DNA of 64,000 bases from Patescibacteria group bacterium. Lineage in GTDB: Bacteria > Patescibacteriota > Patescibacteriia > UBA10025 > JAHIVO01. The position numbers and the translations under genes are program-made. The notes under the pieces were generated by a model. It made no database searches, had not been told where the DNA came from, and saw only the letters and a program-made list of their open reading frames with translations. Of this stretch, positions 47,163-63,996 are shown in pieces. Location of the stretch: contig JAXDBW010000042.1 of assembly GCA_034678405.1 (NCBI GenBank), positions 136 to 64,135 of the forward strand, in the 5' to 3' direction. Within the stretch, counting starts at the first letter, position 1, and every line of letters starts with the position of its first letter.

Positions 47163-47984
47163 TCATTCCCAAACTTCGGTAAACTGAAATGTTTTGAATA
47201 TCATTTTGTTTATTTCAGAATTATTACCACGCAGCAGGTACGTGTGTCCTTTGAGTTCGAACAGATAATTCAGAGCTTCTCCCCCGATCGCCATTGACTC
47301 GGTCACCGACCAACCGGGTATCCCACTCGCATAAATCTTTTTCTTGGTTAACAACGTATCGACCACGTCACTAATTTTTTCATCGATCGGTGTCTGGTCT
47401 ACTGAAATATATGGATATGGATAGCTGCCGTCGATGGGGGCAATCGAAATAGTTGCGTTATCTTGATCAATGATGTTGTATGTCGGCGGGTAGGAAATCC
47501 TGTATGCATACTCCTCGTTCTCATACGTGAGCCAGTCAGAGGTGTCCACCGTCGTGCTGTCGGCATTCGCGTTGGTCGCCGAATTTGTATTGCCGTTTAT
47601 ATTCCCATTGGGATCAGCCACACAAAATGACACAGTCTCACCATAGTCTTCAATTTGTATCCACTGATCTATTTCGCATATTTCTCCTGATTCACAATCA
47701 CTATCGCTCTCACATAATTTGTGACATTTCTGATCACCGCCGACTGTCTCAACCGGTGCAGTACCATCCCATCGCAGCCCACCACTGACCGCATGATAGC
47801 AGTAGTACCCTTCGGGGCAGGAGTTAGACGTATAGGTGCATTCAGGTGTTTCAGCAACCGTAACAGCTGCATCGTTCCCCTCCTCATTATCCTTCACTAC
47901 AAATGCCGCAGTGAGCATGAGCACGGTGATGAGGAAGATAAAACCAATGATGATGGTATAGGTGTAGCCTTTTTGGGTGGTCAT
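47163..47984 (-). CDS. Cys-rich secreted protein with a pilin-like N-terminus
   Basis: Basic leader ending in QKG, then YTYTIIIGFIFLITVLMLTAA, which resembles a class III/prepilin signal. 14 Cys in the mature part. Paralogous N-terminus with the next gene. Confidence 0.55.
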   Translation of the reverse strand: MTTQKGYTYTIIIGFIFLITVLMLTAAFVVKDNEEGNDAAVTVAETPECTYTSNSCPEGYYCYHAVSGGLRWDGTAPVETVGGDQKCHKLCESDSDCESGEICEIDQWIQIEDYGETVSFCVADPNGNINGNTNSATNANADSTTVDTSDWLTYENEEYAYRISYPPTYNIIDQDNATISIAPIDGSYPYPYISVDQTPIDEKISDVVDTLLTKKKIYASGIPGWSVTESMAIGGEALNYLFELKGHTYLLRGNNSEINKMIFKTFQFTEVWE

Positions 47985-47994
47985 AGAGTGATTA

Positions 47995-49440
47995 TTATTC
48001 AAAACAAGTTAAGATAGTCGTGGGTGTCACGTCATCGACGAGTTCACCACTGCGATACACATCATAGTAACTCGCTGGCGTAAACGTGAAATCGCCACAG
48101 GCGGGTACCTGCCGAGCGCTATCCAGGAGCTGCTCATAGCGCTCATTGCTGGCAGCCTGATCCGCCGGGCATGGCTCGCCACATTCGGCAAATGTCTCCT
48201 GTCCTGTCTTGGTGACTGTTTTTGTCCCCAGATATATGTCATATGTCGCCATCGCTCCAAACCCAGCATCACCGCCCGCAAAGGCCATATGCATGATATT
48301 ACTATCGGGATCAAAAGAGGTAAATCGCAAGGCGGCTAAATAAATGAATTCCAACTGGTCATAGATATTGTGTATCAGTAATTCCTGTGTGCCGGCTGAA
48401 ATAGTATATTTATACAAATCGCACTGGCGATATTGGGCATATTCCGCTCCCTGCCCGCTACTCTGGCAGGGTCCCTGCAAATAATACAGCCGGTCAGGCG
48501 CTACCAGGTAGATATTTCTAATCGAACTCTCTGTATTATCCTCACCACTGAAAAGTATAGATGATGCCCCTGAACTGATAGTATAGACACCGACGCTATG
48601 ATACGTGCTGTCCCCAGGCTCTTTCGTGATGTAGTACACCTTCCCGTCATGATACGCGGCCCGGTTATTAGTCGAGCGCATGAGCAACGTCGCTATTTCG
48701 GACGTCTGTCCATCGGACGACATCTTTTTCAGCGCAGCATATGATGACTGGTTTTGGTGCGTCGGTGGGTCGAGATACAGAAATCCGCCATCCGGCGACG
48801 TCGCGGTGGTACTGCTGACTGGCGTGGCAATTACCGTATACTCACTACCCAGTCCGAGATCGGCCGCGTCAAGGTTCTGAAACATGGTCATAAACATCGA
48901 CCGATACGTTTCGTCATCACAGGTAATTTGCTGCCCATCGATAGAATCATACGCCCGACACAATACATGGTCAGTATCTCCATCATAGAGCCCAAAAAAG
49001 TATGAGGCATCTGGGCAACTCCCTGACCGGCTCCATGCCACCAGCGCATCATCAATCACGAATAGCGCGTTGCGTTTATCATTGCATGTAGAATTCTCAG
49101 CAATCTGCCGAAACGGCGCGAGATCCACGGTCGTCACGTCAGACTCGGTCGGCACACATTTGAGCATAGTGGCCGGACAGTCAGACATCCCTTTCTCTGG
49201 ACAGGGCCCCCAGCCCCGCGACGTCACTTCAAATTCATACCCTGCGGGGCAGGTGCATGCCACCGGTGCCACGGCGGTATGTGAATACTCGAGACTCAGG
49301 TCGCAAACCTGAGTTTGATTGGTCGGGCCAGTATTGCTACCATTCTCCTGCACCACCAGCGCGGCAGTGAGCATCAGCACCGTGATGAGGAAAATGATAC
49401 CGATGATGATGGTATAAGCGTAGCCACGCTGGGATGTCAT
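47995..49440 (-). CDS. Cys-rich secreted protein with a pilin-like N-terminus
   Basis: The start chosen, MTSQRGYAYTIIIGIIFLITVLMLTAALVV at 49440, is nearly identical to the N-terminus of the neighbouring gene. The ORF track extends upstream to 49578. Confidence 0.55.
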   Translation of the reverse strand: MTSQRGYAYTIIIGIIFLITVLMLTAALVVQENGSNTGPTNQTQVCDLSLEYSHTAVAPVACTCPAGYEFEVTSRGWGPCPEKGMSDCPATMLKCVPTESDVTTVDLAPFRQIAENSTCNDKRNALFVIDDALVAWSRSGSCPDASYFFGLYDGDTDHVLCRAYDSIDGQQITCDDETYRSMFMTMFQNLDAADLGLGSEYTVIATPVSSTTATSPDGGFLYLDPPTHQNQSSYAALKKMSSDGQTSEIATLLMRSTNNRAAYHDGKVYYITKEPGDSTYHSVGVYTISSGASSILFSGEDNTESSIRNIYLVAPDRLYYLQGPCQSSGQGAEYAQYRQCDLYKYTISAGTQELLIHNIYDQLEFIYLAALRFTSFDPDSNIMHMAFAGGDAGFGAMATYDIYLGTKTVTKTGQETFAECGEPCPADQAASNERYEQLLDSARQVPACGDFTFTPASYYDVYRSGELVDDVTPTTILTCFE

Positions 49441-49444
49441 ACGA

Positions 49445-50353
49445 TTAACTTGTGATGGTGAATGAATTGACCATACTCTCAAAGTCCTGAGAATACTGGG
49501 TCGCTGGATCGTACGGGTAATGCGATATGATGTACACCGTGTCTCCGTCGAAATAGTAATATGTTTCGACATTGCCACTCGCCTCTCCGGCCGGGATGAC
49601 GGCGCGATACATACTCAGGCCATTTCGGGTCACCCAGCCCTCCTCCAGAGTGCCGTCTGGGCCATCGTCGATGGTATCGATGAATTCTGCCTGAGTAGTG
49701 ACATCAGATCGATAGTCACTGAATGTTGTTTTGTGGATGGTAAACTGGGGGCCAAAGGCATATCCCTCAGTCGCGCCGGATAGCTCTGGGCTTTCCTCTG
49801 TCGGCAGCCAGACCTGATCATGAAGATACCATCCGTCGGGGGTCGTGAATGAATAGCCGTCCTCACTAGCATACTGCCGTGAGTCGACGGTGCTGGCATT
49901 CGCATTTTCTGTCTCGCTACAGTTTTCTTCCCATTCCCGTAAGCACTTCTGTTTAGCTTCGCACCAGGTATAGCCAGCGCTGGGGATGCAGCCGTGTTCA
50001 TCGCGATCACCGCCGAGAATCGCGTCGTTTACATTAGTATCAGTGTTCACATTCTCCTGCACACCCGTCCCATCAGGCTGCTGAGTGACACACTGAGCGG
50101 CGACACACGCACAGGTCGTGCCCGATGGCAGGACATATGATATATCTACTTTACCAATCTTCAGTGGCACGGTGCTCCAGCAACCTGCGGTCGACCCTGT
50201 CTCAACCAGGGTGCACTCGCTGGTAGCGAGGCATGCCGTATCTCCCCCCACGGTCCAGTCAGTAAAGAGCACCGCGGCCCCTCCCGCCAATAGGATGACA
50301 ACCAGTACACTTATAATGATACTGGTTTTGGTAAAACCTTGTGAAGTAGTCAT
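49445..50353 (-). CDS. Cys-rich secreted protein with a pilin-like N-terminus
   Basis: MTTSQGFTKTSIIISVLVVILLAGGAAVLF, which is the G|FT prepilin-like arrangement. Confidence 0.5.
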   Translation of the reverse strand: MTTSQGFTKTSIIISVLVVILLAGGAAVLFTDWTVGGDTACLATSECTLVETGSTAGCWSTVPLKIGKVDISYVLPSGTTCACVAAQCVTQQPDGTGVQENVNTDTNVNDAILGGDRDEHGCIPSAGYTWCEAKQKCLREWEENCSETENANASTVDSRQYASEDGYSFTTPDGWYLHDQVWLPTEESPELSGATEGYAFGPQFTIHKTTFSDYRSDVTTQAEFIDTIDDGPDGTLEEGWVTRNGLSMYRAVIPAGEASGNVETYYYFDGDTVYIISHYPYDPATQYSQDFESMVNSFTITS

Positions 50354-50376
50354 AGTATCGTCTGGTAATGTGATAA

Positions 50377-51162
50377 CTATGGCAAGTCTATGGTCTCGAG
50401 GATTTCTTTGGCGGTCTCATACTCCGGCTGATCCACGAGGTTATTCGCTTCACAGGCGGTGTAGTCAGCAAACTCGAGATCGGTACTACAGCTGAAATAC
50501 GACTGGAAGACAAAGCCCTTGATCTCCGTCGTCCCCGCCACAGTCGGATCATCACCAAATACTTCATTGACCTGACCCTCATAGACGAGATTGGCCAGCT
50601 GGACAGACTCACCCTCGATAGTAATCGTCTCCCCGCTCTTCACCTCTCCCGCACCAATGCCGGTCCGTCCAAGGATACCACCATCATCGCCGGGCAGCAT
50701 CAACCCTACCATCAGCCGGTACTGATTGTCCGGGCTATAGAATTTAAGATAGCGGATGGGAAACTCGGTAAATGTTTCGTCCGTAGTCACTTCCTCATAC
50801 TCCTCAGTCCAGTCGCAAGGATACTGGACGGTATAGCCATATTCTGCATTCGTATACGTATGCCACGGACAGGCCGTCGAGGCTGATGCATTTGTATTAG
50901 TTGTGTCAGAATTCACATTTTCATTTGTTGCGGTGGCCACGTTGGCATTCTCATTGGTCGTCGTATTCACGTTTTGATTTGCATTGAAGTTTGCAGTGTT
51001 TGTATTGGCAGTGGCATGCGTCGCGCTATTGGTCGGCGCGATGTCATCGGCCTTATATTTGATCAAATAATATGCCGCGCCAACCATACCGAGCGCCACC
51101 AGAGCAATGGTAACCGCGGCTACAATGTGGATAAAACCCCGTTCTTTTTTCATAGGCCCCAT
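50377..51162 (-). CDS. Secreted/membrane-anchored protein with a pilin-like N-terminus
   Basis: MKKERGFIHIVAAVTIALVALGMVGAAYYLI and an N-rich low-complexity stretch. Confidence 0.5.
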   Translation of the reverse strand: MGPMKKERGFIHIVAAVTIALVALGMVGAAYYLIKYKADDIAPTNSATHATANTNTANFNANQNVNTTTNENANVATATNENVNSDTTNTNASASTACPWHTYTNAEYGYTVQYPCDWTEEYEEVTTDETFTEFPIRYLKFYSPDNQYRLMVGLMLPGDDGGILGRTGIGAGEVKSGETITIEGESVQLANLVYEGQVNEVFGDDPTVAGTTEIKGFVFQSYFSCSTDLEFADYTACEANNLVDQPEYETAKEILETIDLP

Positions 51163-51171
51163 ACTTATTAA

Positions 51172-51558
51172 TTATTTTTGTAATACCTTATTAACTTCGT
51201 TAACGACATCGGCGAGATGCCAGTCTGTTTTGACCAGATAGCCGCGCGCTCCCTGCTCGATGGCTCGGGTGATCTCATCCCCACCCCCGAGATTGCTGAG
51301 CATGATAACTTTGGCCGTCCTACCCCAGTCATCTTCCCGGAGTTTCTGCAGCATCGTGATACCGTCCATCACCGGCATCACGATATCGAGCAGGATGACG
51401 TCCGGATGCTCGGCTAGCGCGGCGCCGAGACCTTCTTCGCCGTTTTGGGCCTCGAGGACACGAAAATCCTCATGCATAAATTTCACGCGAAGTGCATCAC
51501 GCAATATTTTCTCATCCTCGACGATCAGGACGGTCGCCGTATTCATAGTCAATGACAA
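51172..51558 (-). CDS. Single-domain response regulator (CheY-like receiver)
   Basis: VLIVEDE...D for the acidic pocket, phospho-acceptor Asp in ILLDIVMP, and KVIMLSN. Confidence 0.85.
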   Translation of the reverse strand: MSLTMNTATVLIVEDEKILRDALRVKFMHEDFRVLEAQNGEEGLGAALAEHPDVILLDIVMPVMDGITMLQKLREDDWGRTAKVIMLSNLGGGDEITRAIEQGARGYLVKTDWHLADVVNEVNKVLQK

Positions 51559-51580: not shown

Positions 51581-52525
51581 TTATTCCCCCGCGGGGACGA
51601 CGTCCCCATTGTGTAATTTCTGACAAACGTTTTGGATACAATCCACGCTATACTCGCTATTCTGCTGTGAATTAGGGCAGTACGGAGTTGAGTACTGAGG
51701 ACAGCTCGGGACAGTATCAGAGCACTGCGTCTGGGTTTCTGCCCGGAGATCCACATATGACTCGGTATTCACCGCCACGAAATTCGGATCGCTGTATTCG
51801 ATACAATTAGGCGGCGTGCAGCAATCGGCGTGATCATAGGCGGCATCGACGAGTGAGCAATCGTCGGCCGTGACACAACTCGTCCCGACAGTCCCATTGG
51901 AAAGGGAGACCGTGCCGGCAGTTGTGGTAATCACCACGCTGTTGGTATTTGCGTCTGTTGTCGCATTAATATTGGCTGATGAATTGGTATTATTGGGTGG
52001 GGTACAGTATCCCGCTCCACATGTCGACCCAGTGGCCGTATTGACGGATTTAATAGTCCGATCAATCTCCTGATCAGTGAGGCTAGTGTCACGAGGAAGA
52101 AACAGAGCGGCGTATACCACCGCCGTAAATGAAAGAAGGGTGATCAAGACCAACACCAGCCACACAGCTGTGTGATGACGATGATGCCGGGCGGGCAGGT
52201 CCACTTGCGGCACCGGTACCTTAGTCATATTAAATTTCTCCGGGACGAGCCGTGACGGGGTAACTGGCGTGGCCTGAGACTTCGGTGTGGCGATGACTGT
52301 TGGTTTCTGAGTGCGGGCGGTCGGCTGCGTAGTCCGCGGAGCCTTCTGCCGTGGAGTGACCTGCGACGCGCTGCGCTTCCGCTTCGGAATGGCTTTCTTT
52401 CTGGTGGTGGTTTTTTTTCCGGCAGAGCCGGATCCAGCTTTGCCGGATTTCTTCTTTGTGGTGGCAGTTGTACTTTTTTTCATTGCTGCTATGCTGTTAC
52501 TCCGCGTTAGTCGGGGCTGCGGCAA
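51581..52525 (-). CDS. Hypothetical membrane protein with a basic S/T/K-rich N-terminus and a Cys-rich ectodomain
   Basis: 314 aa with one TM segment (VWLVLVLITLLSFTAVVYAALF) and 12 Cys in the C-terminal half. Confidence 0.5.
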   Translation of the reverse strand: MPQPRLTRSNSIAAMKKSTTATTKKKSGKAGSGSAGKKTTTRKKAIPKRKRSASQVTPRQKAPRTTQPTARTQKPTVIATPKSQATPVTPSRLVPEKFNMTKVPVPQVDLPARHHRHHTAVWLVLVLITLLSFTAVVYAALFLPRDTSLTDQEIDRTIKSVNTATGSTCGAGYCTPPNNTNSSANINATTDANTNSVVITTTAGTVSLSNGTVGTSCVTADDCSLVDAAYDHADCCTPPNCIEYSDPNFVAVNTESYVDLRAETQTQCSDTVPSCPQYSTPYCPNSQQNSEYSVDCIQNVCQKLHNGDVVPAGE

Positions 52526-53048
52526 TCATGACATTCCATGATCCCGCCCCTCCAGGGATATAGATCGCTTCACCCTCAGCTCCACGCATATCGACGGTAT
52601 CAACATACACGCTGAGTGCGGTCACGACGTCAGGACTCCCGAGGGCTGGCTCAGTGAAGTTCCACATGACCGTCTGCGCATCGTCACTTACTGACATCAC
52701 GCCCGGGACACGCTCATCGATACCCTGCAGGACATAAAAATTAGTTGTGGTAATGGTGGCGGGGTTAATTGGTTTCGAGAATGTCAGTGATACCGCTGCT
52801 ATCTCAGCACTCACGCTCTCTGCCTCGGGCGTCGTGCCGGTGAGGTAGATATCCCCGGATGAATCATTGATCACTATGGTATTCGGATTCGTCTCATCAG
52901 TCATCGTAGTCGGTGCGGATGCCTTTTGGATAAATAAGAAATATATTGCAAACAGGAATCCGAGAATAATGATAGCCCCCACCCCGAGCCAGAGCTTGCG
53001 CTTGGCTGCCTGGACCCGAGGATCGATTGGTTGCGGATTGTTTTGCAT
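52497..53048 (-). CDS. Hypothetical membrane-anchored protein
   Basis: 183 aa with an N-terminal TM segment. It overlaps the downstream gene by 29 nt. Confidence 0.45.
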   Translation of the reverse strand: MQNNPQPIDPRVQAAKRKLWLGVGAIIILGFLFAIYFLFIQKASAPTTMTDETNPNTIVINDSSGDIYLTGTTPEAESVSAEIAAVSLTFSKPINPATITTTNFYVLQGIDERVPGVMSVSDDAQTVMWNFTEPALGSPDVVTALSVYVDTVDMRGAEGEAIYIPGGAGSWNVMIAAAPTNAE

Positions 53049-53114: not shown

Positions 53115-53933
53115 CTATTCTGCTCGATTGAAACTCCAAAACGCAAGGATAAACATCACTAGCCCAAAGGCGAGGATGACCAGCATATTCTCGGTCGAGG
53201 AATGGAGCAGGATCGAGTCCAGCACCTGCTTCGGCGCGTCAGTGAAGACCACTCGCCGCAGCCCATCCACCGCATAGGTCAGCGGATTGACAGTAGAGAG
53301 GACTTCCATCCATTTCGGCACATTGGTCAGGGAGAAAAACGCGCCTGAGAGGAACATCATCGGGAAGAAGAGAAACTGAAAGACAAATTGGAACCCCTCC
53401 GCATTCCGCATCCGCGAGGCGATGAAGAGCCCGAGCGCCGTCACGGCAAATGACAGGAGGAGCGCGAAGAAGAGAATGCCGGGAATGGTCGACCACACGA
53501 TGTCGAGCCCGAAGAGGGGCGACAGGGCGATCAGGAGGACGGCCTGGAAGAGACCAATCACGATGCCCGAGAGCACCTTGCCAAACATGATCGAGGCTCG
53601 CGAGACGGGCGCGACGAGGATTTCCTTCAGGAAACCAAACTCCCGATCGGTTACGATCGAAATCGAGGTATTCAGCGCGACACCGAGCGTGGTCGTGGCG
53701 ATAATGCCGGGGAACATAAACTGGACGAAATTGAACCCGATACCCGGTCCCCCGCCCATGGATATGGTCGCCTCGAGTCCGACGCCGAAGATGCCGAGGA
53801 AAATGACCGGTTGCATCACCGAGCCGATGATTCGAGCTTTGTCTTTGAAAAACCGGAGCAGATCACGCATGAAGATATTACGCACCGAGCGGAGCTCCAG
53901 GGCAAATCCTGTTGTATTGGTAGTAGTTGTCAT
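53115..53933 (-). CDS. ABC-2 family transporter permease
   Basis: 272 aa with 6 TM segments and an ABC-2-like N-terminus (RDLLRFFKDKARIIGSVMQP). Confidence 0.8.
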   Translation of the reverse strand: MTTTTNTTGFALELRSVRNIFMRDLLRFFKDKARIIGSVMQPVIFLGIFGVGLEATISMGGGPGIGFNFVQFMFPGIIATTTLGVALNTSISIVTDREFGFLKEILVAPVSRASIMFGKVLSGIVIGLFQAVLLIALSPLFGLDIVWSTIPGILFFALLLSFAVTALGLFIASRMRNAEGFQFVFQFLFFPMMFLSGAFFSLTNVPKWMEVLSTVNPLTYAVDGLRRVVFTDAPKQVLDSILLHSSTENMLVILAFGLVMFILAFWSFNRAE

Positions 53934-54922
53934 CGTCTAAATCCTCTCTTCCTTAAAAAGTTTTTAGATTTCTCAGCGGCACTTGGCGCTTCATCCCGGA
54001 TCTTCGACCCCGTGAGTTTGATGAAGACATCATCAAGCGTCGGCTGCTTGAGTTCGATTGACTGCACTTGCTGGGGGAGCTCACGAATCAGTTTCGGTAG
54101 AACTTCATCGCCATCCTTTACGACTGCTTTTATCTTTTTCTCATCGATCCGGACGTCCTGAGAAAAATGATCCTTGATGTATGCGATGGCCTGATCGTTA
54201 TTGTCGGTCTGCATGGTAATGATATCACCGCCCACACCCTCTTTTAGTTTGTCAGGGGTATCCATAGCCACGATCTTTCCATGGTCAATGACGGCAATCC
54301 GGTCACAGTACTCGGCTTCATTGAGATAGTGAGTCGTCATGAAAAGGGTAATCTTCTCCTGCTTGGCGACTTTCAGGATGTACTGCCACATGGTCGCGCG
54401 GGTCTGCGGGTCGAGACCAATGGTTGGCTCATCGAGGAAGAGAATCTTCGGATAGTGGAGCATCCCGCGGACGATCTCGAGCCGTCGTTTCATCCCCCCG
54501 GAGAAATCCCGGACCGGCTTATTAGCCCGGTCAGCGAGATCGACCAGTTCGAGTAGCTCATGTGCTCGTTTCTTATACACACTCGAGGGTACACCATAGA
54601 ATTCCGCATGGAAGCGGAGATTCTGATAAGCGCTCAGTTCTTCGTCCAGGGTTGGCTCCTGGAATACCATGCCGATTGATTTTCGGACAGCGATACGCTC
54701 AGTCTTCACTGAGTGCCCGGCGATACGCGCCTCGCCGCTGGTGGGCTTGAGAAGCGTGGAGAACATTTTGATGGTAGTCGTCTTCCCGGCGCCATTTGGC
54801 CCGAGGAAACCAAACACCTCACCCTCCCGCACCGTGAAGCTGATCCCCTTTACCGCTTGGAAATCTTTAAACGAGCGGGTCAGGTTTTCGACTTCGATGA
54901 TTGTGGGGTTTGATTCGTTCAT
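53930..54922 (-). CDS. ABC transporter ATP-binding protein
   Basis: Walker A GPNGAGKTT, signature LSGGMKRRLEI, and Walker B ILFLDEPT. Confidence 0.92.
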   Translation of the reverse strand: MNESNPTIIEVENLTRSFKDFQAVKGISFTVREGEVFGFLGPNGAGKTTTIKMFSTLLKPTSGEARIAGHSVKTERIAVRKSIGMVFQEPTLDEELSAYQNLRFHAEFYGVPSSVYKKRAHELLELVDLADRANKPVRDFSGGMKRRLEIVRGMLHYPKILFLDEPTIGLDPQTRATMWQYILKVAKQEKITLFMTTHYLNEAEYCDRIAVIDHGKIVAMDTPDKLKEGVGGDIITMQTDNNDQAIAYIKDHFSQDVRIDEKKIKAVVKDGDEVLPKLIRELPQQVQSIELKQPTLDDVFIKLTGSKIRDEAPSAAEKSKNFLRKRGFRR

Positions 54923-55374: not shown

Positions 55375-56427
55375 TTACTGCTCTAGTATACGCGAGGACG
55401 GCTCACCGGGCAACTCCGATTTCGTCGTCTCGCCGTTTGCGGGGACATCCTTGAGAAATTTCAATCCGACATTTGAGAGGAAGATGAGTCCAATTGCCAC
55501 TTTCACAAAATCAGCTGCCCGCAGCACCATAGTAAAGGCCACGCCGAGTGACGGTGTATACCCGAGCGCCCGGAAGACAATGGCCTGACTGGCCTCAAAC
55601 GAACCGAGTGAGGCTGGAATCGGGATAAGAAATGAAAGAATCATGAAAACCATCATCACGAGAATGTCGAGGAAATGGCCTGATATATTGAGGGCGTGGA
55701 GCACCACCATAAACTGGATAAAGATGACGATCCCCCCGAGCAAAGACAGGAGTAGGCCTTCGATAAATATTCTTGGTCGCCGTTGGAAGAATTGGATAAT
55801 GATACTCTCGAAGTACAACATTTTTTCAAAAAATTTGCTCAGCCGTTTGAATCGGTGGATCCGGAAAAATTTAAGAAATGATGAAAAAAAGCCAATACCG
55901 CGATACGTCTGCACATAGAAAAGCCCAAGTAAGACTACCAGAATGAAAAGGGTCGCCACAAACACACTAATCGCCTCCCAGCTAATCTGATAGGTAAACA
56001 TAGCATAGATGAGCGCCCCGATGAGGAAAGGTAAGGGATACGTAAAGTCCAGAATCTTGTCCACGATAATCGAGGCCATGCCCCGAGAGAGACGGATTTT
56101 TGTCTTGCGTTTCAGTAGATAGGCTCGGATAGGCTCCCCTCCGACGTAGGGGCCGGGGGTGATGAAGCTGATAGCAAACCCGACGAACTTCGGGGCGAGG
56201 AGATCACGAAACGTGACGTGGTCCCCCTGCGCTGCGAGTACCCGCTGCCACCGGTAAATAGTGATGGCAATCTGCAATAACCCGAGACCAATCACGACCA
56301 GTAAAATCTCCCAAGAGAATGAAGAAAAGACACGAACGATTTCATCCGTGCCAATATACAACACCACGCCAATGAATAGCGCGATACCCACCAGCGTGGA
56401 GACGATAAAGAGAAGGATTTTCTTCAT
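55375..56427 (-). CDS. Flippase-like / UPF0104 (MprF N-terminal-like) integral membrane protein
   Basis: 350 aa with about 8 TM segments. Motif R.L..K.VG.A.S..TPG..GGEP.RAYLL. Confidence 0.55.
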   Translation of the reverse strand: MKKILLFIVSTLVGIALFIGVVLYIGTDEIVRVFSSFSWEILLVVIGLGLLQIAITIYRWQRVLAAQGDHVTFRDLLAPKFVGFAISFITPGPYVGGEPIRAYLLKRKTKIRLSRGMASIIVDKILDFTYPLPFLIGALIYAMFTYQISWEAISVFVATLFILVVLLGLFYVQTYRGIGFFSSFLKFFRIHRFKRLSKFFEKMLYFESIIIQFFQRRPRIFIEGLLLSLLGGIVIFIQFMVVLHALNISGHFLDILVMMVFMILSFLIPIPASLGSFEASQAIVFRALGYTPSLGVAFTMVLRAADFVKVAIGLIFLSNVGLKFLKDVPANGETTKSELPGEPSSRILEQ

Positions 56428-56496: not shown

Positions 56497-57294
56497 CTAG
56501 TCGTTCGGATAGACGACAATCACCACTTTCGCGCCCATATCGACATCGCCGCCGTTCCAATCGTGCATTGCCTCCATCACCACATCGATGTCATAGACGT
56601 AATTCTCCCCTTTCCGCGTGCCGACGTCATTGGTGATAAAGGTATCAGTAGTATAGCCCCGCACCACGAACATATGATACAGCGGACCACCACTACGGAA
56701 ATTTGGATTTCCGAGCTGCTTACCGGCAGCCGGGATGATGACTGGGCGTCCTGCCGCGATGTGCCGCTTGATATCATCCACCGACGGATCCTGGATCACG
56801 TCGACACGATCATAGCCCCAGTAGTCACGGATAAACTGCGCGGTCTCAGCCGCGGTTGTGTCTTTATAGAACCCCAAATGCTCCTCCTCCCAGGCAACGA
56901 GATCAAGAATCTCTTTATCAGCGATTTCTGGTGTGAATGTCTGCGATTGATAATAATAGTGGACCGTTATAGCCGAAGCCTCTTCACAGGCCTCCTGATA
57001 CGGATAGTCCCAGTTCGCATGCGGTGCCTGGGTGGTAAACGGCACATTGAGATTGAGCTCGTCAGGGATGGCGACCGGCTCCGGCTCAGCTACCGGGTCA
57101 GTATTTACGTTTTCATCTACAGTATCCGGCTCGGTGTCGACATTGCGGAAGGCATCATAATTCACCGCCGGTGGGGCGGGGTCTTCCATCCATTGCTCCC
57201 AAACGTCAGTAATCCGGTGACGGCCGAGGAATACCAGGCCCGCCAGGATGAAGATAATGAGTATGAAATTTAGCCAAAATATGTGTTTACGCAT
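56497..57294 (-). CDS. C39-like (Peptidase_C39_2-type) cysteine peptidase domain protein, membrane-anchored
   Basis: N-terminal TM segment. Candidate catalytic Cys in YQEACEEASAIT and His in HMFVVRGY. It is a paralog of the gene at 63178. Confidence 0.55.
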   Translation of the reverse strand: MRKHIFWLNFILIIFILAGLVFLGRHRITDVWEQWMEDPAPPAVNYDAFRNVDTEPDTVDENVNTDPVAEPEPVAIPDELNLNVPFTTQAPHANWDYPYQEACEEASAITVHYYYQSQTFTPEIADKEILDLVAWEEEHLGFYKDTTAAETAQFIRDYWGYDRVDVIQDPSVDDIKRHIAAGRPVIIPAAGKQLGNPNFRSGGPLYHMFVVRGYTTDTFITNDVGTRKGENYVYDIDVVMEAMHDWNGGDVDMGAKVVIVVYPND

Positions 57295-57367: not shown

Positions 57368-60300
57368 TTATTGTCCCTGCCTGACGATTTCCTTTAATCC
57401 CGTAATTCTATACTTGCCGCGTTTTTTTTCACCCCCCGCCGCATCGACATATGCGTACGGAGCACGGCCGCCTTTGGACTCGAGCATCTCTGACGTGTCA
57501 ATCAGGGTATAGCCCTCGGGTATCGCGTCCGCTTCTTTGATAAAGATGCGCATTCCCATCTGCTCTGCCTTTTTAACTGCGTGCGTTAACATCACTAAAT
57601 CAACGGCGCCACTGGCCGTGCTAGCATATTTCGTTTCGAGAAACAAAGCCGGCTCTCCGCCGGGTAACGACAACATACGGGTAATGCGACGTCCTATTGC
57701 ATTGCCTTTCTCATTTCTGACGATGGTCGCCTTGGTATTCGGTTCACTGATATATGCCATCAGTGCTTCATTATATCCCCCACTATTGTAGTCCTGACAG
57801 GATTTTACCGGATCTGAACCTATTTTAAAACAAGTTTCCAAATCAGAACTGTCCTCCGCAACCAGATTCTGTGCCGCCTGATCACCCGTGCCCAGTTCCT
57901 GGAGTGTTTTTTCAATTGTAATAAAGACGCTTTCCGCGGCCGGAAACCTTTCTTTCAGGCTGCGTATAAATTTACTTAACTTTTGGCTGCGCTTGCCTTC
58001 CTTGCCCTCCAGTAAATATCCCTGTGCGATTTCTTCGGCTTTTAAAAGAGATAAGCGCACCATGTCACGTTCAGCCGAAAGTTGATCTTGGAATCTTTTC
58101 AATTCATCAATTTTGATATTAATTTCTTCACGTTCAGCGCCCTCAGCTCTACTTTTCTGCTTTCCTAAAGCACTTAACTCCTGGCCTATTTTCTTTATTT
58201 CTTCTTTGATTTCTGCGGTTATGGTTTCGGGATCTCCGGCGGCTAAGGCTTCGCTTCCAAGTTCTTGGATATTAGCCTGCAAAATTGATTTAATGGCAAT
58301 CGCAACGTCGGTACTGGATGTTTCGAGTGAGGCCGCCAAATCAGTTTTTTGATCCTGTGACCACGTATCAAATTGACTGTCTGTTAATGCCTCGGGCACA
58401 TGTCCTTCCATCTTAATATCTTCCAGAAGTCTATTCTTTTCAAACCGCCACTCGTGGTATGTACCCAAACCGGCTTGTTGGAAGGCTTCTTTCATCAGGG
58501 ACATAATTTCAGGATTATCGCGGTGTTTGGTTATATACAGCAGGATAGGCGAACCTCCTCCAAATGATTCAATGGCCTTTTGCTGTTCTGATGGGCTTAG
58601 ATCTGGTGCAGTAAGCTGATTACTGATTTCTACACCCAGTTGTTCGCGAAGCTGCGCCCAAGTTTCCGGCAATGTGGACTCGGTCGATTCCTGTTTCATT
58701 CTCTTCAATAGTGCAAAGCTATACGCGTCTTCCAAAAGCCTCTCTTCATCGCTTTCAGATGGATTCTCAGCTGCAAAAATCTTTTCATAATCATCCTGTA
58801 ATCCCTCACTGTGCAACGTCCCGATTGATTTGTAGAGGCGATATCCTTTGGCCAAAAGGGTTGTTTTTTGTTCAGGTGTTTTGGCGCGCTCTAAACGTTT
58901 GAAAATATTACTAATGGTCTTCGGCGCGAATTGAATACGTTCAGTGTCATTCGCCGCATCCTCCATAATTTTTTCCTGGGATATTTCCGGTACAAACCGT
59001 CTGATCTGATCGGCCATTTCATAGCCAACGAACGGATTAATTTTAATCCACGATCGGATTAATCCAGGCCTGTCCTTTTCATCAATATATCCTATGATTC
59101 TGTCGGCGGAGACTAATGCTTCCGAGGGGTGCTTATCAACCAGCTGCTTCAATTTCATTTTTGCCCAATCCGGGGAAACAGCTTTTGACCATTTATGGAA
59201 ATAATCAAGCGCGGCCTCTTCATCCATCCCTATCACACGTTCTAAAAATAATCTGGCCTCATCCTCATTAAATAAATATGAAAAATTAGGGAAATAATCC
59301 AAAACCTGATGAGGAACTAGATATGATAGTTTTTCCACAAACTTAACGAGATCCTCCTCAGTGCCAAGAACCTGACGGATTTTATCCAACTCCATCAAGG
59401 CATGTTGCGGATTCATTTCCGCCTTCCGCAACAGAAAATCCATCAGTTCATCCTCTGAAACCAGCTCCCGTAAAAAATTACCATCCTCAGTCTGAGATCT
59501 GTACGTTTCTAAAAAACGAAAATCTCTTGCTTCGGCGAGAAGTCCTCGTCCGAATTCCCTTTTTTCTTCGCCGGACATGTGCGACATTTGGTCAAAATGA
59601 CGTCGGCCATATACAATACTTTCTGGATATTCTGTCATCAACCGCTTAATGAGCTGTGGGCGCTCTTCCTCCGGTATGACATCGAGGACGATATGGCTAT
59701 TGCGCAGGGCCTCATACGGGGACTCCCGGATGATGATTCGACTGACCCGTTCTCGCTGCTCCGGTGTAATTAATTTATGCCGCAAAACCTCTTCGCTGAA
59801 CATGGGGCTGAAATTTTTTTCTAGCGTGGTGACACACCTCTCCAATATGTCTTCCATGCCGTGTTCACCAAAATACTCCGCAACGAGTTCCGGCTGATCT
59901 AATAAATCATCAGGGGCGTATTGCGCCATGCGTTTCACGGTTTCCGCCTTCCATCCTTCACCTAAAACTGATGCATACTGATTTAAAGTTTTTTCTGGGT
60001 CACTAAAATGATAATGTATGTTTTCCTCCTGGGTAAGCTTGCTTAAGGCTTGTCTTAGTCTTTCTTTGTCAGCTTCAGTAGTAAACAAGGCGCAGTAATG
60101 AGCCACTACTTCACTGGGGACTAAGGCCCTGTCTATCCGTTGTAAAAACGCATCCATCGCCTGCTCACGAGTAAACACTCCTTCACTTACCAATTGATTT
60201 ATATTTTCAAAAAGCTCGTGATCTGAAACCATTTCTGCACAATGTTTTAGGGTTTCCGGCGTCAATCGTGCCCTGACGGAATCTTTTTTAAATAGATTAT

Positions 60301-61075
60301 CTATAGAATACGGACTTTGTGCCGCCGCGTTTACAACCAGCTCATTCAATTCGTGATCATCAAATAAACTGTCATATTTATCAAGATAAAACAAAAACAG
60401 CCGTGGATCCCTTTCGGCAGCTTTCTGAGCAATATTTCTTATCTCATCATCATGAAAGATACCCCTCAATTCCTTGGAATTCATTAAAAAAGCGTCAGGG
60501 CGTTCCTGGAGAGTGTTTCGAATCAACGAATAAAATGATTCAACATCACCACTTGCCTGATCGCGGGCTGCATCCGTGAAAAAACGTTCAGACAAGCCGC
60601 CACTACCCTGCATTCGACTCAATATTCTCTCCATGAGGCCCGTCGGTATCCCGTACTCAAACGGAAGTGGATGGCTATCTCCTTTTGAACCATGACCACG
60701 ATATTTATACGCATTATGTTCATTTTTTCTCAATTTTCTCAAAGCCCCCAAAAAAGTCTGATACTGCTCCTGTAAATCGGAATCTGACTTCATTCGGTCT
60801 TTTAATTCATCTGCCGACAGATGATATATTTGCTCCGGCGGTTCCGGGATCGGCGTCTTATCAACGTCTTCATCATAGTCCATCATACGCGAAGCTTCAG
60901 CAAATCGAAACTGCTGCTCCAGCTCTTGGGGACCTTTTTGGGTGCCAATTGTCTGGACATCTTCCGATGAGGGAACTGTTTTTTCTGGACTATTCGGACA
61001 ATCCGAAGCATGCTCCCCGATTTCCACCGGATAGCCGCAATGCGGGCATTGTGCTGTTGGTTGTTTTTCAGACAC
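57368..61075 (-). CDS. Giant (1235 aa) acidic helical protein with an N-terminal zinc-ribbon
   Basis: N-terminus MSEKQPTAQCPHCGYPVEIGEHASDCPN, shared with the 61520 gene. The rest has no recognisable catalytic motifs. Confidence 0.6.
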   Translation of the reverse strand: MSEKQPTAQCPHCGYPVEIGEHASDCPNSPEKTVPSSEDVQTIGTQKGPQELEQQFRFAEASRMMDYDEDVDKTPIPEPPEQIYHLSADELKDRMKSDSDLQEQYQTFLGALRKLRKNEHNAYKYRGHGSKGDSHPLPFEYGIPTGLMERILSRMQGSGGLSERFFTDAARDQASGDVESFYSLIRNTLQERPDAFLMNSKELRGIFHDDEIRNIAQKAAERDPRLFLFYLDKYDSLFDDHELNELVVNAAAQSPYSIDNLFKKDSVRARLTPETLKHCAEMVSDHELFENINQLVSEGVFTREQAMDAFLQRIDRALVPSEVVAHYCALFTTEADKERLRQALSKLTQEENIHYHFSDPEKTLNQYASVLGEGWKAETVKRMAQYAPDDLLDQPELVAEYFGEHGMEDILERCVTTLEKNFSPMFSEEVLRHKLITPEQRERVSRIIIRESPYEALRNSHIVLDVIPEEERPQLIKRLMTEYPESIVYGRRHFDQMSHMSGEEKREFGRGLLAEARDFRFLETYRSQTEDGNFLRELVSEDELMDFLLRKAEMNPQHALMELDKIRQVLGTEEDLVKFVEKLSYLVPHQVLDYFPNFSYLFNEDEARLFLERVIGMDEEAALDYFHKWSKAVSPDWAKMKLKQLVDKHPSEALVSADRIIGYIDEKDRPGLIRSWIKINPFVGYEMADQIRRFVPEISQEKIMEDAANDTERIQFAPKTISNIFKRLERAKTPEQKTTLLAKGYRLYKSIGTLHSEGLQDDYEKIFAAENPSESDEERLLEDAYSFALLKRMKQESTESTLPETWAQLREQLGVEISNQLTAPDLSPSEQQKAIESFGGGSPILLYITKHRDNPEIMSLMKEAFQQAGLGTYHEWRFEKNRLLEDIKMEGHVPEALTDSQFDTWSQDQKTDLAASLETSSTDVAIAIKSILQANIQELGSEALAAGDPETITAEIKEEIKKIGQELSALGKQKSRAEGAEREEINIKIDELKRFQDQLSAERDMVRLSLLKAEEIAQGYLLEGKEGKRSQKLSKFIRSLKERFPAAESVFITIEKTLQELGTGDQAAQNLVAEDSSDLETCFKIGSDPVKSCQDYNSGGYNEALMAYISEPNTKATIVRNEKGNAIGRRITRMLSLPGGEPALFLETKYASTASGAVDLVMLTHAVKKAEQMGMRIFIKEADAIPEGYTLIDTSEMLESKGGRAPYAYVDAAGGEKKRGKYRITGLKEIVRQGQ

Positions 61076-61523
61076 AGAGCATATCTGCTAACTCTTTTTT
61101 ACGTTCGAATGTCAGCCGAGGTAGCACTTTCCGTACCTCAGCCGTCGCCTCACGCAGTGTCTCGAGCTGCTCCATGCCCCGCAGAGCGATGGCCAGGCGC
61201 TGATCAATGCGCGCTTCCTCGGTGAGGCCGCCCTCAAGCACGACTGCATCATAGCCGTAATGTAATTGCAGTGTACGCACCACCACATCTACGAACCGGG
61301 GATGGTCTGACTGGATCGTCTGCTGCTCGATCGTTATCGCTTTTGAATCACCCTCCCCGGGCAGCATCGCGACGATGCCGTGCTTCCACCAATCATGTAG
61401 CTGCCGTTGCATCCGATACCGCTCGCCGACTGTACCGCCAGAAACAGAAAATATGCCACTTTCTAGTATGATATGCATTGTCCCTGATGGTCTGGTGATG
61501 GTAATTATCCGTTTCATATTCAT
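61068..61523 (-). CDS. Hypothetical protein (151 aa) between the two zinc-ribbon genes
   Basis: Overlaps both neighbours by 4-8 nt, which indicates translational coupling. Confidence 0.5.
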   Translation of the reverse strand: MNMKRIITITRPSGTMHIILESGIFSVSGGTVGERYRMQRQLHDWWKHGIVAMLPGEGDSKAITIEQQTIQSDHPRFVDVVVRTLQLHYGYDAVVLEGGLTEEARIDQRLAIALRGMEQLETLREATAEVRKVLPRLTFERKKELADMLCV

Positions 61524-63148
61524 GATGCTCCGGTAACACTAAAAAGATACTCCTTAATCATATTTGGGCTGTATTCCTTTTCTGAGTACTGTTTTTGCCA
61601 TCGGGCGATTTCCTGGTCGAGAATATCTTCTCCCCACCGCTCAGGATCCTCCAGTTGTCGGCTGACCTGATTTGCGAGAACGGCGAGAGATTCTTTTTCG
61701 CGATCGGATAAGGATTCAGAAAAATCAGTCAGGGATTGTTCTATCCGCTGCCGGGAGGCTTGGACGATCTCTTCGGCAATGGGCGGAAAGATGAGATTGA
61801 AATCAACGTGACTGGCGCGAGTCGCACCCTGCATAAAATGAAGAAACTCTTCTGATATACCCTGCCCACCATTCGCGAGCCATTCCTCGTAAGCTCGCTC
61901 GATTTCCGTCTGTTTCAGCTCCTCTATAGCTGTGCGCACTTGGGGGGGTATCAGCGCCCAGGCACGGTCTCGTTCATCATCGATGACCTGTCGCATATAT
62001 TCCGAACGTGATTGGGACGCAGCACCGACGTCATAATTTGGATCCTTGCGTTTCACCCAATTATCTACCAATGCGAAATCCTCGGGGTATTCACTCTGAA
62101 ACCAGCTCGGGTTGGATAAATAGGCTCCACCAATTTCTGCCCAATACTCAGTGACTTGATTATAGAGCTGGGCTGAGGAATCGGAGTCGTTGATTGCCTG
62201 CACATACTCAGTGATATATCGGTTCTCCCCTTGGAGAAATCGTTTCGTGACCATGGTCAACAGCTCAGCACGTTCGGGTATAGTCATCTGGTTATCCCGT
62301 AACCAGTCATTGGCATGCATAAACTCATGGTTGGCCGTACTCAAAAGTTCATCAATCTGTTCGTGAAGATACAGATCTATGCTGGTTGGTCCTGTGTCTT
62401 TGCCCCGAGCTTGGCCGGCCTTTACCCAGCCCTCTCCGAGATTGTACTGACCGGCCATCGATCGCTCCTCGGCACTAGCATCTGCCCGATAAATAATTGA
62501 GTCAATGTCGCCGCGGATCCAGTGCTCGGGATATGTTTCTTCAAATATCTTCCTAATTGCCTCGGACTCAAATGACGTCCCCTCAAAACCGGTAATCACC
62601 TCGGGTGATGTCGGTATCTGCCCCAATGCCCGACGCTTGAAATTATCTTGGGCCACATTCATAAATAACTGATATTCACTATCACCATATATGTCCCGCA
62701 GATAATCCAGATCGCCCTGAGCTTCGTGCAGCTCCTGTGCTATGTGCTCAAAACTCTCCGTGAAATTCTCCGACTGCTGCCACTGGGTATCGAGTTGTTG
62801 CCAAAACGGCACGGTTTCGGCCGTGTTAGTCGACTGTTGCTGTGATTCCCGCGATACCCGCTCGATGGCCATCCCTTCCTTCAGTGGAGAGAGTAGCGCC
62901 AGGGAAATAAAACCAATCTCAGCCAGATGATTGAGGCTGCGCTTCATACGTTCGATACGGCTGGAAGAGACCCGTTCTGATCGTTCTGCTTCCAGGGTCT
63001 GTAATTGCTCCGTGATATCAATTAGCTCAGGATCCGGTAGTGCCTCCTGATCACCCACCTCTCGATTCGGGCAGCCCACAGCATGCTCGCCCGTTTCTAC
63101 GGGATAGCCACAGTACTGACATTGTGATTGTGGTTGTGCTTCAGGCAT
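61520..63148 (-). CDS. Zinc-ribbon N-terminus protein with an HExxH motif (542 aa)
   Basis: N-terminus MPEAQPQSQCQYCGYPVETGEHAVGCPN, and an internal ANHEFMHANDW. Confidence 0.6.
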   Translation of the reverse strand: MPEAQPQSQCQYCGYPVETGEHAVGCPNREVGDQEALPDPELIDITEQLQTLEAERSERVSSSRIERMKRSLNHLAEIGFISLALLSPLKEGMAIERVSRESQQQSTNTAETVPFWQQLDTQWQQSENFTESFEHIAQELHEAQGDLDYLRDIYGDSEYQLFMNVAQDNFKRRALGQIPTSPEVITGFEGTSFESEAIRKIFEETYPEHWIRGDIDSIIYRADASAEERSMAGQYNLGEGWVKAGQARGKDTGPTSIDLYLHEQIDELLSTANHEFMHANDWLRDNQMTIPERAELLTMVTKRFLQGENRYITEYVQAINDSDSSAQLYNQVTEYWAEIGGAYLSNPSWFQSEYPEDFALVDNWVKRKDPNYDVGAASQSRSEYMRQVIDDERDRAWALIPPQVRTAIEELKQTEIERAYEEWLANGGQGISEEFLHFMQGATRASHVDFNLIFPPIAEEIVQASRQRIEQSLTDFSESLSDREKESLAVLANQVSRQLEDPERWGEDILDQEIARWQKQYSEKEYSPNMIKEYLFSVTGAS

Positions 63149-63177
63149 AGTCCAATACCTTACTACACGACTAAAAT

Positions 63178-63996
63178 TTATTCAACGACCACACCGCTAT
63201 TCCCCAGTAGCCCCCACATCCACGTGAAGTGGTCGACGGAGAGATACCGTTCACCAGAGAGTGGATCAAGCACGATGATGCGCGTCGGTCCGGACGCTGC
63301 GCCGACATACCCAATCACCACGAACGTGTGTTCGCCCATGATAGCGTCAATATGTTTACCATCAGGTGTTTGCCAGTCGATATCCGTACCACTACCGGCT
63401 GTACCCCAGATGATCACCGGATGACCCTGCTGGATTTCACCGATGATATGCCCCAGCTGCCCTCCAGTAAAGGCTCGCGTGGTGCGATAGGCAGCGCCCG
63501 CCTGGGCAATCGGATCCCAGTACACTCCATACCCCGTCGAGGGCTGGCGGCCGTCGATATCACCAACAAATGCTACGTTTGGATCACCCCAGACGCCATC
63601 TGATTTGGGCGTGGGATCAAAACCAATCGCGTCTATGAGTGGTTGCTCATCAACATTTACCCCAAAATACGATAATGCCATTTTCAGGGTGGCTACTTCA
63701 CAGCTCAGCGGATGATCCTGTCGATCGTAGGCGATGTTCAGTTTCGTGACGGATAGCTCAGTCGCAAATGTGATCTGCTGATCAGTATCCGATGGAAACC
63801 CGTCGACACTCTTAATTCCCTTGGCGAGAGTGACCGTATAGGTGCTATTAAATTCAAGAGTGGCTGCGGGAGTAAATATCATAGTGTTTCCATCCCACGA
63901 GATGGTGCCGTCCACGGCTGGTGAAATGCTAAACTTACTTGCGGCTGAATCCGTATTTACCGCCTGATCAAATGCGATGCGGATGGCACTACTCAC
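63178..63996 (-). CDS. C39-like cysteine peptidase domain protein. The N-terminus may extend beyond the window end.
   Basis: Candidate catalytic Cys in HPLSCEVATLKMALSYFG and His in HTFVVIGY. The first in-frame start inside the window is the GTG at 63996, and the frame is still open at 64000. Confidence 0.55.
   Translation of the reverse strand: MSSAIRIAFDQAVNTDSAASKFSISPAVDGTISWDGNTMIFTPAATLEFNSTYTVTLAKGIKSVDGFPSDTDQQITFATELSVTKLNIAYDRQDHPLSCEVATLKMALSYFGVNVDEQPLIDAIGFDPTPKSDGVWGDPNVAFVGDIDGRQPSTGYGVYWDPIAQAGAAYRTTRAFTGGQLGHIIGEIQQGHPVIIWGTAGSGTDIDWQTPDGKHIDAIMGEHTFVVIGYVGAASGPTRIIVLDPLSGERYLSVDHFTWMWGLLGNSGVVVE

Follow-up and report, generated by a model that had tools for sequence, protein, structure and literature searches.

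A long co-directional gene run in a Kerfeldbacteria-like Patescibacteria genome is probably a mosaic of surface-protein and membrane-protein modules

Type IV pilins are the closest described counterparts of proteins with prepilin-like N-termini. Glu5 of pilins forms a salt bridge in the filament core and is absent only from tip-capping subunits (PMC10191384). Modular pilins with grafted domains are known, and PilD acts on its own (PMC10191384). In Saccharibacteria, PilX1 and PilX2 have non-canonical signals (PMC11623550), and pilin genes of the Candidate Phyla Radiation (CPR) are normally clustered with PilD, PilB, PilT, PilC and PilM genes (PMC7143001, PMC11623550). The window analyzed here is a 64,000-nt stretch of a Patescibacteria genome (assembly GCA_034678405.1, contig JAXDBW010000042.1, positions 136 to 64,135). 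The original prediction read a minus-strand gene run at its end, including four proteins with prepilin-like N-termini, as a possible surface-structure or secretion/processing locus. Its observation was partly confirmed and its interpretation partly supported. The co-directional run is probably a mosaic of at least five separate gene modules, which encode mostly cell-surface and membrane proteins and do not make up a single machine. The region is an ordinary variable surface-protein neighborhood of a collinear Patescibacteria genome and has two minor features still to be explained.

Every coding-quality open reading frame (ORF) between 47163 and 64000 was on the minus strand, the strand of all genes described below. 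Sixteen genes were counted from 47163 to the window end and labeled g1 (47163-47984) to g16 (63178 to beyond 64000). The single strand proposed for 17 consecutive genes was therefore correct and the count was not, the sixteenth gene being cut by the window end. The proposed limits of 47163-63996 did not hold either; the run continued downstream of 47163 through hrcA, grpE, hsp20, a gene for a 119-aa CxxC protein, dnaK and three more genes to 40531, showing that the complete run comprises 24 genes from 40531 to beyond 64000. The spacers from g16 to hrcA were, in order, 29, -4, -8, 73, 69, 189, -4, -4, 66, 13, 22, 9, 23, 4, 10 and 106 nt, with overlapping start and stop codons within g10-g9-g8 and within g15-g14-g13. 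The description of these spacers as short or negative was mostly accurate (≤73 nt) and broke down at the 189-nt g11/g10 spacer, which holds a terminator-like hairpin and a promoter-like site. GC skew was negative in 27 of the 32 two-kb bins of the window, indicating that the minus strand is probably the leading strand and that co-orientation alone says little about shared function. The cumulative GC skew over 1-64000 fell steadily with no turning point. The entire window lies within one replichore.

Domain identities, topology predictions, spacers, synteny, presence or absence in relatives and N-terminal motif statistics were computed directly. All domain calls made earlier for the run (receiver, AbrB, ABC-2, flippase-like and C39-like) were reproduced by Pfam and NCBIfam scans. 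Exact copies of the proteins were present in the Patescibacteria metagenome-assembled genome GCA_964419765.1, and the genome is a Kerfeldbacteria-like member of the Patescibacteria. Searching one genome per species with the g12 orthologue alignment as seed gave 56 homologous loci (numbered with the prefix L below); those with informative names were all Patescibacteria (Kerfeld-, Uhr-, Falkow-, Terry- and Veblenbacteria), and the best named match was a Kerfeldbacteria chromosome with 63% identity. For synteny, all window proteins were compared by BLAST with the ORFs of these loci and of four further loci identified in other ways.

In the 16 closest loci the order was g16 ... g12 - g11 ... hrcA - grpE - dnaK, and the minimal arrangements were g16-g12-hrcA (L029) and g16-g12-g11-hrcA (L031). 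Between these genes the content varied. The interval from g16 to g12 (island A) held 0-4 genes across the related loci, and the interval from g11 to hrcA (island B) held 0 to about 10. Synteny thus gave a clean division of the run, with one backbone and two islands. Genes of a single locus would be expected to be inherited together and to lack internal transcription signals. However, g2, g3, g5, g8-g10 and g13-g15 were variably present in the 16 loci, and g5, g2 and g3 had no counterpart in any of them. The conserved order reaches into the heat-shock operon, indicating clade collinearity; it is not evidence of a functional unit. Comparative evidence is needed before a long same-strand run in Patescibacteria is taken for an operon or a dedicated locus. 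This Patescibacteria-specific gene order (C39_2, flippase-like and, at 55-88% identity, hrcA-grpE-dnaK) was also found in many records that are labeled, probably wrongly, "uncultured Gammaproteobacteria bacterium" (L016, L018, L020, L022, L026, L027 and others).

The backbone would consist of two membrane-anchored papain-fold (C39-like) cysteine peptidases, g16 and g12, and the MprF-type flippase-like protein g11, placed upstream of hrcA-grpE-dnaK. The window retains the C-terminal 273 aa of g16 (63178..64000), a membrane-anchored protein with Big_5 and Peptidase_C39_2 domains (PF13529, E 2.6e-20; PF13205, E 3e-11). No stop codon preceded this ORF before it was cut by the window end. Its orthologues, found in 13 of the 16 related loci and in L068 and L069, were 627-652 aa long with an N-terminal transmembrane (TM) segment followed by Big_5 domains. 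At least 378 residues of g16 were contained in a short public contig, and attempts to extend past the window end through contigs encoding g15 found only contigs of 2.6-6.5 kb. The second peptidase gene, g12 (56497..57294), encodes 265 aa with an N-terminal TM segment, a linker and a Peptidase_C39_2 domain (PF13529, E 1.9e-10). Q89, C103, H207 and D223 were invariant in its orthologues, and the Cys and His motifs of g12 and g16 were alignable. Both peptidase domains are predicted to face outward. A sequence search of the PDB with the g12 alignment gave nothing meaningful, and the neighbors of distant g12 homologues showed no conserved partner gene. The third backbone gene, g11 (55375..56427), encodes a 350-aa multi-pass membrane protein related to the TM domain of MprF (PF03706, E 1.5e-41, residues 12-312 of 350; TIGR00374, 101 bits with a cutoff of 43). 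Thirteen related loci have g11, mostly directly after g12; in L014 and L022 other genes intervene. The protein is a member of the flippase-like family; MprF proper was ruled out because the synthase domain is lacking.

The downstream end of the proposed locus was set by a perfect CIRCE (controlling inverted repeat of chaperone expression) operator, TTAGCACTC-N9-GAGTGCTAA, at 47108-47082. It overlaps a predicted promoter (TTGACC-17-TATAAT; operator and promoter together at 47072..47111), with the TTGACC -35 element in the CIRCE spacer and the TATAAT -10 element ahead of hrcA-grpE-hsp20-(119-aa CxxC protein)-dnaK. This predicted operator is a firm boundary. The CIRCE inverted repeat was scored as "terminator-like" by the terminator scan. 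In the same operon, the 119-aa CxxC...CxxC ORF (44442-44801) has a positional counterpart in a relative (L007 13115-13507), to which it was 71% identical. The public gene call for this genome places a 130-aa plus-strand gene at 44433-44870 over it; given the identity of the minus-strand ORF, this call is probably a shadow ORF.

The first module of island B was a three-gene cassette with 4-nt overlaps between g10 and g9 and between g9 and g8. An 88-aa AbrB/SpoVT-type DNA-binding protein is encoded by g10 (54919..55185; TIGR01439, 47.8 bits with a cutoff of 28.3; PF04014, E 1.8e-9), a DrrA-subfamily ABC ATPase by g9 (53930..54922; TIGR01188, 353.6 bits with a cutoff of 312; PF00005 and DrrA1-3_C), and an ABC-2 (DrrB-like) permease by g8 (53115..53933; PF01061, E 4e-34; drrB score 193 bits, below the cutoff of 223). 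Of the 16 loci, 6 had the cassette, and 9 loci covering the interval between g12 and hrcA lacked it; the complete trio recurred in L013, L019 and L022. The ABC-2 ATPase and permease of L022 (12830-14855) were 74-76% identical to those of the window (53115-55185), whereas the backbone proteins g12 and g11 of that locus were only 51 and 37% identical, showing that the cassette has a separate history. This suggests lateral exchange among Patescibacteria. In L013, the AbrB gene was 74% and the ATPase 49% identical to that of the window. The regulator and the DrrAB-type pump may thus form a mobile exporter cassette, probably self-regulated. The C39 proteins had been taken for an exporter-coupled processing module. 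However, the DrrAB/ABC-2 transporter carries no fused peptidase, and the cassette is parted from the peptidase genes by a predicted terminator. A bacteriocin system of the peptidase-containing ABC transporter (PCAT) type was rejected on the wrong transporter class, on separate units with g11 and the predicted terminator between them, and on the absence of the cassette from the 9 loci.

The predicted transcription boundary between backbone and cassette (55222..55284) consists of a hairpin at 55284-55257 with a T-run, followed by TTGACG-16-TATACT at 55249-55222. Promoter-like sites with 10 of 12 consensus matches were found before g12 (57354-57326) and before g11 (56495-56467), and a site with 9 of 12 matches and an extended -10 element was found before g7 (53086-53058). 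Together with the spacer pattern, these signals suggest the units g16-g15-g14-g13, g12, g11, g10-g9-g8, g7-g6-g5-g4-g3-g2-g1 and hrcA onward, all of which we infer from consensus sites. A single operon was contradicted by the predicted terminator and promoter and by the variable gene content across relatives.

The same evidence bears on the idea that the entire run is one supra-operon for envelope biogenesis or for secretion and processing. In that case a lipid-linked compound or a peptide would leave the cell through the ABC-2 pump and the flippase-like protein, maturation of the anchored proteins would fall to the C39-like peptidases, and regulation to the receiver g5 and the AbrB-type protein. 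All 16 genes share one direction and most spacers are tight, membrane proteins are predicted for 10 of the 15 complete genes, and the order g16 ... g12 - g11 - (ABC-2) recurs in L010, L011, L013, L014, L019 and L022. However, the predicted terminator and promoters subdivide the run, and the cassette is missing from 9 loci that keep the backbone, with identities discordant with it. The receiver is unique to this genome among the 16 syntenic loci, the collinearity runs on into the heat-shock genes, and distant g12 homologues lack conserved partners. The transporter is also of the DrrAB type and not a peptidase-containing bacteriocin exporter. We consider a supra-operon very improbable. With 10 of 15 complete genes encoding membrane-segment proteins and an N-terminal anchor in the orthologues of truncated g16, the region is rich in surface and envelope proteins. 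Of the proposed surface-structure or secretion/processing locus, the surface-rich region and real sub-blocks were retained, and the single linked functional locus was not.

The remainder of island B, g7 to g1, was a tightly spaced set of seven genes separated by 4-23 nt. The set opens with g7 (52497..53048), which encodes 183 aa with an N-terminal TM segment (22-40) and a Big_5 domain (PF13205, 24.9 bits with a cutoff of 23.6) and has an orthologue in L005. It is followed by g6 (51581..52525), which may start at either of two codons, the TTG at 52525 or the ATG at 52483. This protein of about 300 aa has a Lys/Thr/Pro-rich cytoplasmic N-terminus, one TM segment and a Cys-rich ectodomain (12 Cys); partial homologues with different anchors were found in L011, L012 and L014. 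A stand-alone CheY-like receiver of 124-128 aa with no output domain is encoded by g5 (51172..51558; PF00072, E 1.2e-23, residues 10-111 of 128), with its acceptor Asp in the context LLDIVMP; no chemotaxis or kinase genes were found in the annotated part of the window. The next gene, g4 (50377..51162), encodes 261 aa with the anchor MKKERG|FIHIV, an Asn/Thr-rich linker and a PsbP-like domain. The 302-aa product of g3 (49445..50353) has the anchor MTTSQG|FTKT, a TM segment at 12-30, a Cys-rich segment (10 Cys) and a PsbP-like domain. The anchor MTSQRG|YAYT, 16 Cys and a large domain were found in g2 (47995..49440, ATG 49440, 481 aa), and the anchor MTTQKG|YTYT, a Cys-rich module, a linker and a PsbP-like domain in g1 (47163..47984, ATG 47984, 273 aa).

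A single TM segment lay near the N-terminus in each of g1-g4 and g6, with 4-16 cysteines per protein. In g1-g4, one hydrophobic stretch of 23-25 residues followed the leader. These four proteins had been described as secreted and Cys-rich. Cysteine richness held for three of them (2.9-3.3% in g1-g3, 1.5% in g4), and the long hydrophobic stretches would fit uncleaved membrane anchors; we infer retention of the anchor over cleavage. Ectodomain modules recurred behind differing anchors. For example, g2 was 48% identical to g1 over the first ~70 aa only, indicating paralogous anchors, and its Cys-rich segment recurred in L011 behind a different anchor. No Pfam or PDB match was found for g2, and permissive Pfam searches (E ≤ 5) returned nothing for g2 and g6. 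Searching with g1 gave seven proteins including the query (E ≤ 1e-3). In the AlphaFold2 (AF2) model of g1 (mean predicted local distance difference test score, pLDDT, 61), a helix at 5-32 and disorder at 33-46 were followed by a beta-rich Cys module, a disordered linker and a C-terminal domain with pLDDT of ~80. Foldseek gave this domain significant matches to Mycobacterium tuberculosis Apa, PsbP and CyanoP (E 1e-4 to 8e-4, TM-score 0.33-0.47, probability 1.00). The PsbP_2 scores of g3 (20.0 bits, E 7.6e-4) and g4 (16.9 bits) were below the cutoff of 27 bits; homologue P0005 carries PF18933 (PsbP_2), and one homologue is named "PsbP-related" by NCBI.

We propose that g7-g1 comprise six single-pass proteins and a lineage-specific receiver, each surface protein built from an anchor, a low-complexity linker and a disulfide-rich, Big_5 or PsbP-like ectodomain. 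The set may have grown by local duplication and module shuffling and is probably co-transcribed. The Sec system would insert its surface proteins as signal-anchored, N-in/C-out proteins that are exposed at the cell surface, likely as a variable interaction or binding repertoire of an episymbiont. These roles, like every biochemical role given here, are putative.

The N-termini of g1-g4 bear on a different reading. All four had the pilin-type leader format (a short basic leader, Gly at -1, a hydrophobic residue at +1 and ~20 hydrophobic residues), and their genes are in tandem. A window scan for glycine-hydrophobic anchors gave g1-g4 plus one weak case at 36427, and no canonical G-F-T-L-I-E pilins. 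When 1.84 billion representatives were searched in full with g4 by HMMER, 656 relatives were recovered at E ≤ 1e-3. Among the best 146 full-length sequences of these, 45 (31%) had a [KR]-G-[F/I/L/V/Y] leader followed by a TM helix, as compared with 8 of 179 (4.5%) singly anchored ORFs in ~1 Mb of related DNA, three of the 8 being g4 orthologues next to hrcA. The motif-bearing leaders had a modal length of 5 and K/R at -2, with the consensus MKNQ[KR]G|F[IT][HP]IV, and the g4 orthologues beside hrcA in L017, L019 and L037 kept [KR]G[FL]xHI. These features could make g1-g4 class III signal subunits that are cleaved after Gly and placed in or on a pilus-like structure, with the neighbors serving export and processing; tip subunits without Glu5, modular pilins and the non-canonical PilX1 and PilX2 signals offer precedents. 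However, Glu5 was missing from all 4 window proteins (g1-g4 have I, I, S and V at +5) and from all 45 motif-bearing family members, although canonical GFTLLE/GFTLIE pilins exist in related Patescibacteria (L043, L062). The prepilin models PF07963 N_methyl (Pfam, E ≤ 0.01) and TIGR02532 (NCBIfam, E ≤ 1) gave no match. A lollipop fold, with an alpha-1 helix of ~50 residues on a beta-sheet head, was not seen in the g1 model, the only one on which this comparison rests; its helix had 28 residues, ended at residue 32 and ran into disorder, and no pilin was matched by Foldseek. The closest g1 orthologues, P0003 and P0004, start with MTRTNYIPLTVV... and MNQQPSTKTFKTLPILIII... and have no glycine. Glycine was also missing from the syntenic anchored proteins of L005, L010, L011 and L013, those of the last three loci belonging to other anchor families, and 69% of the g4 family had unrelated anchors. 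PilB, PilC, PilD, PilM and PilT were absent from the 16 genes, 10 other scanned window proteins and the syntenic loci, the remaining window ORFs being judged by eye, whereas CPR pilus genes are typically clustered. We therefore regard pilus-like subunits as a very unlikely explanation. A pilus or competence locus was rejected on Glu5, sequence models, fold and machinery. The prepilin-like N-termini of the original prediction stand as a leader format, and the conserved G|F/Y context was found in part, being conserved and enriched in the g4 subfamily and missing from the g1 orthologues.

Cleavage of these leaders is a separate question from filament assembly. The main determinant of prepilin cleavage is Gly(-1), not Glu5. 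Since tip subunits without Glu5 are also known, a prepilin peptidase could still act here, and g1-g4 and ~30% of the PsbP-like family may carry class III-type signals cleaved despite the missing Glu5. We consider such cleavage unlikely, and filament assembly of g1-g4 much less likely than cleavage. If cleavage did occur, non-pilin ectodomains would be handled by, or shown at the tip of, a type IV pilus apparatus, a bacterial counterpart of archaeal surface proteins with pilin leaders, for host contact by an episymbiont. These organisms need type IV pili to attach to their hosts, and the enrichment of a pilin-leader-like anchor in one of their surface-protein families could bear on the host interaction of such ultrasmall bacteria.

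Island A lies between the two peptidase genes and would encode proteins that have no signal peptide or TM segment, among them a zinc-peptidase-like protein with a small, translationally coupled partner. The 542-aa g15 (61520..63148) has an N-terminal CCHC motif followed by a domain with an ATLF-like zinc peptidase fold. The 151-aa g14 (61068..61523) shares 4 nt with the end of g15 and 8 nt with the beginning of g13. The 1235-aa g13 (57368..61075) begins with the same CCHC motif as g15 and has only 2 homologues besides itself among 5.8e9 protein clusters. None of the three was predicted to have a signal peptide or TM segment, and none had a Pfam, NCBIfam, PADLOC or PDB sequence match; permissive Pfam searches (E ≤ 5) were also empty for g13-g15, and PDB searches with g15 and its alignment gave nothing meaningful. 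Only generic receiver cross-hits were obtained when PADLOC was run on 9 proteins. A defence island or a prophage was dismissed, as no matches supported either.

The g13 and g15 proteins were alike in their first 28 residues only (68% identity; 61048-61075 and 63121-63148). This motif, M-x-E-x-QP-x3-C-x2-CGYPVE-x-GEH-x3-CPN, is CCHC and sometimes CCHH. In related genomes it stands at the start of 568-1526-aa proteins from at least four families that do not align with one another. Besides the window it occurred in L005, L010, L011, L017, L020, L024, L037 and L068, and it was encoded only between the two C39-like peptidase genes and nowhere else in 1.08 Mb of related DNA. A g15-type gene was always followed by a gene for ~150 aa with overlapping codons; in L017, L024 and L068 this gene directly follows the g15 homologue and its 147-155-aa product was alignable with g14 end to end at 18-23% identity. 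The g15 family keeps HExxHAxDW and, ~55 residues on, EYWAE(I). In the AF2 model of g15, pLDDT was ~85-90 from residue 335 onward and only 50-78 over the HExxH region. The top Foldseek matches were anthrax lethal factor and Clostridioides difficile Zmp1/PPEP-1, with weak E-values. By its modeled fold, with HExxH and a downstream Glu, g15 would belong to the ATLF-like (M34/LF/PPEP/MtfA) peptidases. Island content changed between close relatives. The g13 homologue of L011 was split into 756 and 319 aa. A 71-aa ORF in L017 (8695-8910) consists of 23 aa of the Cys/His motif fused to a piece that matches the Big_5-C39 protein C-terminus at 58% identity; it resembles a scar of recombination or deletion. 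A CorA-like gene of ~318 aa, missing from the window, was found just upstream of the g12 homologue, between both peptidase genes, in L012, L016, L017, L020, L021, L022, L037 and L068.

Island A and the flanking peptidases could also be a conflict or effector module, with the rest of the run unrelated. The variable large proteins that start with the common CCHC motif would then be polymorphic effectors, with g15 a zinc-peptidase toxin and g14 its immunity protein or inhibitor, and the conserved N-terminus would serve recognition, with release or processing at the surface. One motif on at least four unalignable families at this position alone, the coupled small gene after every g15-type gene, an ATLF-like fold (common in toxins) and the fast turnover of the island, including the L017 remnant and the L011 split gene, are consistent with this. 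However, g13-g15 lack signal peptides, TM segments and known trafficking domains and gave no PADLOC or Pfam match to a toxin or immunity protein; the C39-like domains are predicted outside the cell and g13-g15 in the cytoplasm; and six relatives keep both peptidases without the island. An effector module is therefore improbable. A Cys/His tag on unrelated large proteins, always encoded between two surface cysteine peptidase genes, could point to a host interaction of ultrasmall bacteria.

Several results weigh against the mosaic. The strand-switch rate of the window itself was 0.20-0.24 per junction, at which 0.04-0.08 runs of at least 24 genes are expected per window, showing that the run is unusually long. 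The [KR]G[F/Y] anchors were 7-fold enriched, which a plain signal anchor does not explain. The backbone and some of the island content are kept together at only 31-60% protein identity, and functional coupling is possible, for example of the C39-like peptidases with the proteins encoded between them. The promoter scan, which scored consensus matches only, gave 37 promoter-like sites in comparison with 22.5 expected from shuffles, indicating that single promoter or terminator calls are weak evidence for the predicted units. The AF2 models of g1 and g15 were of modest confidence (pLDDT 61-63) because their alignments hold only 4-7 sequences; the word-indexed homologue searches returned, with the query counted, 7 proteins for g1, 3 for g13 and 4 for g15.

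Rfam and tRNA scans of the region found nothing. Elsewhere in the window, an 849-aa membrane protein (17341-19890, minus strand) matched VirD4/TraG/TrwB-type coupling proteins (PF10412, E 2e-11; PF02534, E 2e-10).

The heat-shock genes adjoining g1 follow the CIRCE/HrcA arrangement, with a perfect operator over the predicted promoter of hrcA-grpE-...-dnaK, and lie outside the proposed locus. The g11 protein matches the UPF0104/TIGR00374 flippase-like family over its full length as a multi-pass protein; with MprF it shares the flippase TM domain only and not the C-terminal aminoacyl-phosphatidylglycerol synthase domain. As in DrrAB-type ABC-2 exporters, g9 passes the DrrA cutoff, g8 is an ABC-2 permease and the genes are translationally coupled. 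However, an AbrB/SpoVT-type gene precedes them and g8 falls below the DrrB cutoff. With PCAT/C39 bacteriocin systems the run shares a papain-fold C39-clan peptidase with Gln, Cys, His and Asp and an ABC transporter, whereas its peptidases are stand-alone, TM-anchored C39_2 proteins (one with Big_5) and its transporter is ABC-2, not ABC-B, in a separate predicted unit. No double-glycine precursor was seen, with no systematic search of small ORFs aimed at one. Unlike described ATLF-like peptidases (anthrax lethal factor, PPEP-1/-2/-3 and MtfA), g15 has an N-terminal CCHC motif and long helical flanks and no signal peptide, and it matched neither the Pfam ATLF model nor a PDB sequence. The C-terminal domain of g1 is like PsbP, CyanoP and Mog1-fold proteins in its modeled fold, to which the window proteins add a TM anchor and Cys-rich modules.

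Type IV pilins and pseudopilins (type IVa pili, Com and type II secretion systems) share with g1-g4 the K/R-G leader end, an aromatic or aliphatic +1 residue, a hydrophobic helix of ~22 residues and tandem genes. They differ in having Glu5 and a pilin head, which were absent here (the head from the g1 model), where PsbP-like and Cys-rich ectodomains are carried on disordered linkers. Archaeal surface proteins with pilin-type leaders (PMC10191384) have globular non-pilin ectodomains, and their cleavage has been shown experimentally. With a motif that is optional in the g4 family and cleavage that is putative here, g1-g4 would resemble these archaeal proteins if a prepilin peptidase cleaves them.

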